Origin: Promethearchaeota archaeon
GTDB lineage: Archaea > Asgardarchaeota > Lokiarchaeia > Sigyniarchaeales > SOKP01
Direction: 5' to 3'
DNA: 64,000 nucleotides
Assembly (NCBI GenBank): GCA_016839705.1
Contig: JAEOTR010000041.1
Span: 50,251-114,250 of the forward strand
Shown: piece after piece, positions 22,560 to 24,364 of the stretch
Position numbering within the stretch: position 1 is the first letter of the stretch
Layout: each line of letters starts with the position of its first letter
Translations under genes and position numbers: made by a program
Notes under the pieces: model-generated
The model's input: the letters and a program-made list of their open reading frames with translations, nothing else
Told to the model about the DNA's origin: nothing
Databases searched by the model: none

Positions 22560-22569
22560 GGAATAATAA

Positions 22570-22643
22570 CGGGCTATGAGGGAATCGAACCCCCGACCGT
22601 CAGGTTAAGAGCCTGCTGCGCTACCTGCCTGCGCTAATAGCCC
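22570..22643 (-). tRNA. tRNA-Lys(CTT), no intron
   Basis: GGGCTAT/ATAGCCC acceptor, GCGC D-stem, CT-CTT-AA loop, GGTTCGATTCC T-arm. Confidence 0.93.
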
Positions 22644-22666
22644 AAATAATATGTCCAATGAAAATG

Positions 22667-22768
22667 CGCAGATGGAGGGACTCGAACCCCCGAGCGCTCC
22701 CGCGCACTGGCTTGCTTGAATGCATTAGATACTCAAGGCCAGCGTCTTACCAGCTAGGCTACATCTGC
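22667..22768 (-). tRNA. tRNA-Ser(TGA) with 19-nt canonical 37/38 intron (22713-22731)
   Basis: GCAGATG/CATCTGC acceptor, G73, long variable arm, CTGGC/GCCAG anticodon stem, central BHB helix CTTG/CAAG with CAA bulge. Confidence 0.88.
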
Positions 22769-23434: not shown

Positions 23435-23555
23435 ACAATATTCTTTTTCTTTTATTTTTTTTGATAAGATGCATGAAATCATATTTTATAATAAAATATT
23501 AAAATTTTAAATCGTTATATATACTTACAACTCTACGCTCGGGAAATTAAACGAA

Positions 23556-23697
23556 GCTCAGATCATCAATCCTTTAGATTGCTGAAAGAAAGTCGCTTAG
23601 CCTGGTAGAGCGCTGGATTGCTAATCCAGTGTCCATCGGATACGTGGGTTCGAAAAGAAACGCATTTCGCATATTCTTGAAATTCCCACCCTGAGCG
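23556..23697 (+). tRNA. tRNA-Ser(GCT) with two non-canonical introns: about 6/7 (23562-23591) and 59/60 (23655-23683); alternative 5' end at 23537
   Basis: CTGGA-TT-GCT-AA-TCCAG anticodon arm, long variable arm, GTGGG/CCCAC T-stem, 3' CCTGAGC-G. GCTCAG plus GTC gives a perfect acceptor stem. T-loop intron has BHB TTCG/TGAA with AAA and ATT bulges. Confidence 0.8.
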
Positions 23698-23898
23698 CTT
23701 AAATATTTCGATATATTCAAATCTTCAAGATCAATTTGAAAAATCATCTAACCTTCTTTCTTTACGTTTAATAGAATTTGTTAAAAGATCATAAAATAAA
23801 TTATACTTTTGTGGTAATTTTATGCCTAAATTTTGGAAAAACTCAGTAGCAAATAAGTCCGACATCAAACGATATTCTAAATAAAAATAACTCAAAGG

Positions 23899-24135
23899 AT
23901 GTGGACAAACAAAATTACTGGTAAAACGTCAATTTCATATAAAACTGCTGTTGCATCAAAAAGTCAGATTTCAAAATTCCTTTCTATAGTGAAGCCCAAA
24001 AAGTGGCAATTTAATTGGGAAAGAATAGGTCATAGACTGAAATTAGTCGGTTCAAATTTTAAAGAAGCACTCAAATATAATAAAGAGAAAACCCTAAGCA
24101 ATTTTGCTAAAGATGCCTTAAAGGACTTAGAATAG
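23899..24135 (+). pseudogene. possible C-terminal remnant of a LAGLIDADG-like or other protein
   Basis: Short ORF between tRNAs; ASKSQISKFLSIVKP only loosely resembles the end of a LAGLIDADG domain; no LAGLIDADG motif present. Confidence 0.25.
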
Positions 24136-24228
24136 TTATATATCATCTAAATTCTATATTTAAAAAAATATTAAAATATTGAATGATTATATTATTTCTC
24201 TGTGTATTGAGTATATGAGTGTTAACAT

Positions 24229-24364
24229 GGGCCAGTGGTCTAGCGGTTATAACAGTAGTTAATTTCTAAAATGTAACAAAGACGTCTCGCTTACACCGAG
24301 AAGGTCGGGAGTTCAAAAAGAAATAATAATTCATTATTTCTTGAGAACCTCTCCTGGCCCACCA
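24229..24364 (+). tRNA. tRNA-Val(TAC) with encoded CCA and two 30-nt non-canonical introns: 22/23 (24251-24280) and 59/60 (24318-24347)
   Basis: GGGCCAG/CTGGCCC-ACCA, TCTCG-CT-TAC-AC-CGAGA. Intron 1: GTT/AAC helix, ATA and AAG bulges, ACA/TGT. Intron 2: TTCA/TGAG, AAA and AAC bulges, AGAAATAAT/ATTATTTCT. Confidence 0.9.

Follow-up and report, generated by a model that had tools for sequence, protein, structure and literature searches.

A three-exon tRNA-Ser(GCU) gene in a Loki-type Asgard archaeon, preceded by a conserved leader copy of its acceptor 5′ strand that may act as a stand-in during splicing

The window analysed here is a 64,000-nt stretch from a draft genome (3.36 Mb, 32% GC, 93% complete) of a Loki-type Asgard archaeon. 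As read from its sequence, the locus at 23556-23697 is a tRNA-Ser(GCU) gene made of three exons and two introns. The gene and the elements upstream of it, all on the forward strand, are as follows.

23488-23520, + strand: AT-rich conserved block, ATAATAAAATATTAAAATTTTAAATCGTTATAT, present upstream in nearly all genus members.
23537-23543, + strand: putative leader copy of the acceptor 5′ strand ("copy 1"), GCTCGGG, recognised by its conservation, its RNAalifold pairing and its presence only in interrupted genes.
23544-23555, + strand: spacer of 12 nt (10-12 nt in relatives), variable in sequence in the lineage alignment.
23556-23561, + strand: exon 1, tRNA positions 1-6, GCTCAG ("copy 2"); ARAGORN accepts the spliced product.
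23562-23591, + strand: intron 1, 30 nt, at position 6/7, placed by bulge-helix-bulge (BHB) geometry and by intron-less orthologues.
23592-23654, + strand: exon 2, tRNA positions 7-59, from G7 through A59, with a partial Rfam match.
23655-23683, + strand: intron 2, 29 nt, at position 59/60, in a strict hBHBh′ motif.
23684-23697, + strand: exon 3, comprising T60, CCCAC, CCTGAGC and G73, from the ARAGORN spliced product.

Exon 2 carries G7, the D-arm (GCTT/GAGC), the anticodon arm with anticodon GCT (CTGGA-TTGCTAA-TCCAG, stem CTGGATTGCTAATCCAG), an extended variable arm (GTCC-ATC-GGAT) and, up to A59, the first half of the T-arm, whose T-stem strand reads GTGGG; 52 of its 63 columns are invariant across seven lineages. 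Exon 3 supplies the 3′ acceptor strand CCTGAGC (23690-23696) and the discriminator G73 (23697), and CCA is not encoded at the 3′ end. A first-pass annotation of the window had described a tRNA body intact from G7 onward and the acceptor strand CCTGAGC, and both are confirmed, G7 lying at 23592 ahead of an intact D-arm and the anticodon loop TTGCTAA. On the unspliced locus neither ARAGORN nor Rfam called a tRNA: Rfam returned only a sub-threshold partial match at 23595-23629 (model positions 10-42), and ARAGORN called an 83-nt tRNA-Ser(gct) only once both introns had been removed. Splicing yields a standard class-II tRNA-Ser that matches genes of the genus in which introns are lacking. All three exons follow one another in tRNA order within 23556-23697, unlike those of a split (trans-spliced) or permuted gene.

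The T-arm had been left unexplained in the first-pass annotation. It contains the second intron (23655-23683), and 36 nt separate GTGGG from CCCAC in place of the usual 7. Cleavage sites were assigned by the BHB rule, under which each 3-nt bulge is cut after its second base and the 4-bp central helix pairs exon positions -5 to -2 with intron positions n-5 to n-2. The 59/60 intron lies in a strict and perfect hBHBh′ motif, with a central helix H of TTCG/TGAA (4/4 pairs), bulges AA|A and AT|T, an inner helix h′ of AGAA/TTCT and the 5-bp T-stem as outer helix h. Its removal leaves the T-loop TTCGAAT, identical to that of genus members without this intron, and the excision thus validates the cutting rule. 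Some members of the genus carry the 59/60 intron and others do not, independently of the intron at 6/7, and where present it has the conserved core GCATTTMGCAT. This patchy distribution suggests either repeated loss or the gain of one homologous intron.

The 5′ interruption was assessed against 36 tRNA-Ser(GCU) loci from 54 genus genomes together with two metagenome lineages. In the 28 genes without a 5′ interruption the acceptor strand runs directly into the body, as GCTCAGG-TCGC or, in a second acceptor type, as GCAATCG-TCGC. Nine lineages instead have GCTCRGG, a spacer of 10-12 nt, GCTCAG and a hairpin insert of 30-35 nt before G-TCGC. Since the intron-less genes of the genus read GCTCAGGTCGC, the junction is fixed at 6/7: exon 1 joined to 23592 restores GCTCAGGTCGC, and other junctions fail to do so. 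We therefore hold with high confidence that the intron at 6/7 is real and that exon 1 lies at 23556-23561, in agreement with the first-pass annotation, which had placed an intron inside the 5′ acceptor strand at this position.

Measured by the same rule, intron 1 has bulges AG|A and AA|G of 3 nt each with exactly four positions between them. The hairpin TCAtCAATC/GATTGcTGA (23563-71, 23577-85), reported earlier within these 30 nt, forms the inner helix h′ as 3 bp (23563-65/23583-85) plus 5 bp (23567-71/23577-81), and in the window gene it begins exactly at i2:n-6. Only two of the four central pairs between GCTC and AAGA can form (C23557:G23588 and T23558:A23587), and the motif is a relaxed rather than a strict BHB, as the first-pass annotation had also judged it. 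The same geometry, with bulges AG|N and NN|G around a four-position central helix, recurs in the insert of all nine lineages, with the inner hairpin starting at i2:n-6 in seven of them. Central pairing amounts to 2/4 in the window and two further lineages, 3/4 in four and 4/4 in two; the pairs C2:G and U3:A occur in all nine. Compared by eye, h′ keeps its pairing through sequence change, one pair being T.C, T.G or T-A depending on the lineage and the stem CAATC/GATTG being exchanged for AGC/GCT or TTAG/CTAA elsewhere. The outer helix h has 1-3 bp, and the 3′ end of the spacer (CGA or GA) is able to form it with U8-C9(-G10). When introns were shuffled with the junctions held where the exons fix them, and H and h′ pairing were scored together, 1.8% of trials matched the observed pairing for the window gene, and from 3% to <0.01% did so for the eight related lineages. 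The central helix of the window taken alone is at chance level (2/4 pairs, P=0.38 by shuffling). An unconstrained BHB scan of 23500-23640 gave hundreds of relaxed matches and is uninformative unless the junctions are fixed.

The first-pass annotation had supposed that such an intron would need an EndA of relaxed specificity, and the genome appears to encode a suitable enzyme. The predicted catalytic (α) subunit, encoded on contig 56 at about 35.9-36.5 kb, aligns end to end with the EndA α subunit of A. pernix and retains K44-P-R46 of the Crenarchaea-specific loop, an element that gives broad substrate specificity (PMC3241643). EndA of the (αβ)2 type with an L1 loop has been reported from Asgard archaea (PMC5829648). 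RtcB and the RNase P RNA are also encoded in the genome. Searches of the genome with intron 1 and intron 2 found only short matches at chance level, and there is thus no sign of recent transposition.

The position had been called very unusual, which overstates the case: Thermoproteales have a documented intron in the acceptor stem, at 3/4 (Sugahara 2008, reviewed in PMC4090602), and Asgard tRNA genes with multiple introns, missed by standard annotators, have been published (PMC11291895; bioRxiv 10.64898/2026.10.13.758758). The intron at 6/7 is of a known kind, but its position is new. Like the non-canonical BHB introns of Crenarchaea (PMC4090602; Marck and Grosjean 2003), it is small, lies away from the anticodon loop and would be spliced by proteins, with a relaxed motif, an (αβ)2 EndA bearing the Crenarchaea-specific loop and more than one intron per gene. 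It differs from them in that 6/7 is missing from the positions listed in the PMC4090602 review and in that the host is an Asgard archaeon. The published Asgard genes resemble the present one in having T-arm introns in canonical BHB motifs and weaker motifs elsewhere; those studies centred on Atabeyarchaeia and Jordiarchaeia, and neither describes a leader element.

Two candidate 5′ strands had been reported ahead of the tRNA body, GCTCGGG at 23537-23543 and GCTCAG at 23556-23561, and both are present. The upstream one, copy 1, pairs with CCTGAGC at all seven positions, G5-U68 being a wobble. Six of its seven positions are identical throughout the nine-lineage alignment, compared with 3 of 12 spacer columns and 6 of about 35 intron columns; a seven-lineage comparison of the whole 20-nt leader gave 5 of 20 as invariant. 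Were copy 1 to change at the rate of its flanks, such conservation would have a chance of about 3e-4 by our own binomial estimate. Its sole change, A5 to G in the window genome and its nearest relative, still allows pairing with U68, and in one relative (L070) a substitution in the 3′ strand likewise preserves pairing with the copy. Copy 1 occurs in 9/9 interrupted genes and in the nearby sequence of 0/28 uninterrupted ones, although the interrupted genes all share one homologous 5′ region and the association counts as a single evolutionary origin. A metagenome scan with TGAAAGNNNGTCGCTTAGC yielded at least four true loci and two new lineages, most of the listed matches being unrelated; no acceptor-stem variant able to show covariation was found among the metagenome matches listed. 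In the window genome the copy is absent from all 32 other T-arm-anchored tRNA genes, and a direct-repeat search of the genome gave no further pair of copy and acceptor strand. Nor was another first intron before about position 12 seen in the approximately 35-40 tRNA genes recognised there, some ten tRNAs being unfound. Downstream of the copy lies, as a stand-in strand would call for, an intron whose central helix engages tRNA positions 1-4. The conserved leader copy is probably functional, to judge from these comparisons.

RNA folding was predicted with and without the copy. For each of the lineages, minimum-free-energy and consensus folds pair copy 1 with the 3′ acceptor strand (RNAalifold, 9/9 sequences), with a predicted probability of about 1.0 for this pairing and 0.00 for exon 1 with the 3′ strand while the copy is present. 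When the copy was deleted or mutated, the predicted probability of exon 1 pairing with the 3′ strand rose to 0.91-0.99 in four lineages. In L002 loss of the copy lowered the predicted central-helix probability from 0.95 to 0.5-0.2, and in L075 it did so from 0.7 to 0; no central-helix gain from the copy was predicted in L003 and L071, and in the window genome the central helix was not predicted with or without it. Even for the spliced RNA, the two-dimensional energy model favours pairing of the copy rather than of the real strand (0.99 vs 0.01), so that a hand-over would have to involve tertiary folding or irreversible cleavage by RNase P. A further helix is predicted for exon 1: together with the first intron base (23556-23562) it is nearly complementary to the 5′ side of the D-arm, GCUUAGC (23595-23601), and the RNAalifold consensus prefers this invariant GCUCAG/GCUUAGC helix. 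In the folding model, such pairing may rival formation of the BHB or come before it.

Transcription of the leader copy is inferred because a TATA-like TTTTAAAT at 23505-23512 is centred 28 nt before it, in AT-rich DNA. A TATA-like box stands at -28 from copy 1 in five of the nine interrupted genes, such words being common at 32% GC. The box lies within the 33-nt upstream block (ATAATAAAATATTAAAATTTTRAATCGTTATAT), which is far better conserved than the adjacent intergenic DNA and whose 15-mer core occurs three times in the genome. On this conservation the block is probably a promoter, though its length exceeds that of a BRE plus TATA box; the upstream regions of the other tRNA genes are too AT-rich to be aligned for promoter calibration.

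To form its central helix, the 6/7 intron depends on tRNA positions 1-4, which otherwise belong to the acceptor stem, and this creates a structural conflict that a stand-in strand would resolve. In the pathway we propose, transcription would start at or just before 23537, giving an RNA that opens with the 7-nt copy of the acceptor 5′ strand. The copy would pair with the 3′ acceptor strand and hold the precursor in a tRNA-like frame, leaving the real 5′ strand (23556-61) unpaired and free to form the BHB central helix with the intron's 3′ end. If the copy were missing, the acceptor stem would sequester GCUCAG, and the BHB would be impossible. A broad-specificity (αβ)2 EndA would then cut after G6 and before G7, and RtcB would join the ends. 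Once spliced, the real strand, 7 nt long and contiguous with U8, would replace the copy, and RNase P would cut before G23556 and discard copy and spacer together. The mature tRNA would carry A, not G, at position 5. In our estimate, a functional stand-in role for the leader copy has slightly the better of the argument. The stronger proposition, that the copy is an obligatory cis-acting RNA helper, a disposable stand-in that lets an intron within the first dozen nucleotides use the real 5′ strand for its splice motif, is in our estimate evenly balanced.

If the 6/7 intron is spliced as described, GCTCGGG might still have no part in splicing and be kept instead as an element of the start site or of the region next to the promoter, as a remnant of the ancestral 5′ end, or as an aid to 3′-end processing or stability. 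We regard this as rather unlikely, with points of some weight on its side: in L004 the copy takes the place that the mature 5′ end has in uninterrupted genes, 34 nt after the conserved block; in L003 and L071 it brings no predicted central-helix gain; and the two-dimensional model gives no hand-over after splicing. A relic, however, should decay like its flanks, where about 20-25% of columns are invariant, and copy 1 has not done so; nor do uninterrupted genes have such a word at the equivalent place. The copy also keeps a constant distance of 10-12 nt to exon 1, whereas its distance to the upstream promoter block is either 16 or 34 nt, and its one change maintains complementarity to the 3′ strand. 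Far less probable is the alternative raised in the first-pass annotation, in which GCTCGGG (23537-43) is itself the true 5′ exon, followed by a 49-nt intron at 7/8 or by nested introns, with G5 in the mature tRNA. All seven nucleotides of that strand can pair with the 3′ strand, and ARAGORN accepts its product also, but no BHB can be drawn for it: drawn by hand, its junctions give a central helix of 2/4 pairs and no inner helix (A23544 faces A23585), and the inner hairpin is in register only at the 23561/62 junction. GCTCAG at 23556 is moreover unchanged across all nine lineages of the alignment, and removal of a 19-nt leader by RNase P is a simpler route to the same product. Copy 1 is better described as a conserved leader copy.

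Least probable of all, and in our view scarcely credible, is a decaying pseudogene whose serine AGY codons are read by another tRNA. Standard tRNA finders do miss the locus, and the assembly is just 93% complete. The first-pass annotation had named the lack of a mature product together with a second, intact tRNA-Ser(GCT) gene as the finding that would make this a pseudogene; searches of the assembly with anticodon-arm and D-arm patterns and by BLAST revealed no such second gene, and the pseudogene reading fails on this point. Against it, too, exons are 92% identical across lineages and introns 57%, both introns retain their splice motifs, and the architecture is kept in nine lineages, each relative having one tRNA-Ser(GCU) match. 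AGY makes up 29% of the serine codons in the long ORFs of the window. The reading that we favour, a working single-copy gene in three exons that matures by way of the leader stand-in, is on the whole fairly probable.

Candidate introns that start from GCTCGGG or lie between the two copies were drawn and rejected. Starting from GCTCGGG, a 49-nt intron at 7/8 or a 48-nt intron at 6/7 has a central helix of 2/4 and no inner helix. A 19-nt intron between the two copies, excised before or after the first splicing, lacks the palindromic or self-complementary word required (drawn by hand on the sequences of the window and its relatives), and its GCTC-GAGC pairing lies two bases out of register and leads to a wrong product.

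In the searchable literature on such introns, no published description of a leader copy of the acceptor strand was found. A parallel exists with trans-spliced split tRNAs of Nanoarchaeum equitans and Caldivirga maquilingensis (PMC4090602, PMC4033280), in which sequence foreign to the mature tRNA likewise pairs, holds an EndA substrate together and is then discarded. Unlike these, the window gene lies entirely in cis within 161 nt, and its putative helper would pair with its own 3′ acceptor strand rather than with the leader of a partner and would be removed by RNase P rather than by EndA.

Read as a working gene, the locus shows how much fragmentation of a tRNA gene is compatible with function in the archaea most closely related to eukaryotes. 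Standard annotators here fail to see an essential single-copy tRNA, which makes genome-based tRNA counts, and inferences of codon reassignment drawn from them, unsafe for such lineages. The spare acceptor strand hints at a way for introns to survive in the acceptor stem, where splice motif and tRNA fold exclude each other. If the proposed pathway is true, a cis-acting RNA helper would act alongside EndA, ligase and RNase P, and some of the bias in where archaeal tRNA introns lie would be explained; were the pathway to hold generally in intron-rich archaea, it would amount to an undescribed step of tRNA maturation and a rule for the sites where introns can settle.

Across the whole 93%-complete genome Rfam called 24 tRNAs and ARAGORN 31, many of them with introns, and pattern scans of the genome did not find Phe, Cys, His, Trp and other isoacceptors. 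The low number of calls together with the frequency of introns indicates that many tRNA genes are hidden by interruptions, in keeping with publications on other Asgard classes (PMC11291895; bioRxiv 10.64898/2026.10.13.758758).

Within the genus, near-identical tRNA-Ser(GCU) bodies are found with two acceptor stems, GCUCAGG/CCUGAGC and GCAAUCG/CGAUUGC. Between the two versions (L005-L020 and L072-L085 compared with 23556-61/23690-96 of the window) there are five differences per strand, with every pair kept. Their distribution is discordant with the tree of the neighbouring JAB-domain gene, itself weakly resolved, and this hints at replacement or recombination of the 5′ and 3′ ends of the tRNA; the tree of this flanking gene is too weak to date or order gains and losses.

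In many relatives tRNA-Val(UAC) follows tRNA-Ser by 7-12 nt. In the window about 530 nt (23698-24228) lie between tRNA-Ser and tRNA-Val(TAC), which is found near 24229-24364, and the extra sequence may be an insertion; a 78-aa ORF within it (23899-24135) has no Pfam match. About 0.8 kb upstream of the locus, on the reverse strand, are an uninterrupted tRNA-Lys(CUU) at 22569-22644 and a tRNA-Glu(UUC) at 22667-22768 with an anticodon-loop intron, which appears as 22 extra bases in the Rfam alignment and is placed as a 15-nt intron by ARAGORN. A profilin-like ORF also lies near the tRNA-Ser(GCU) locus.
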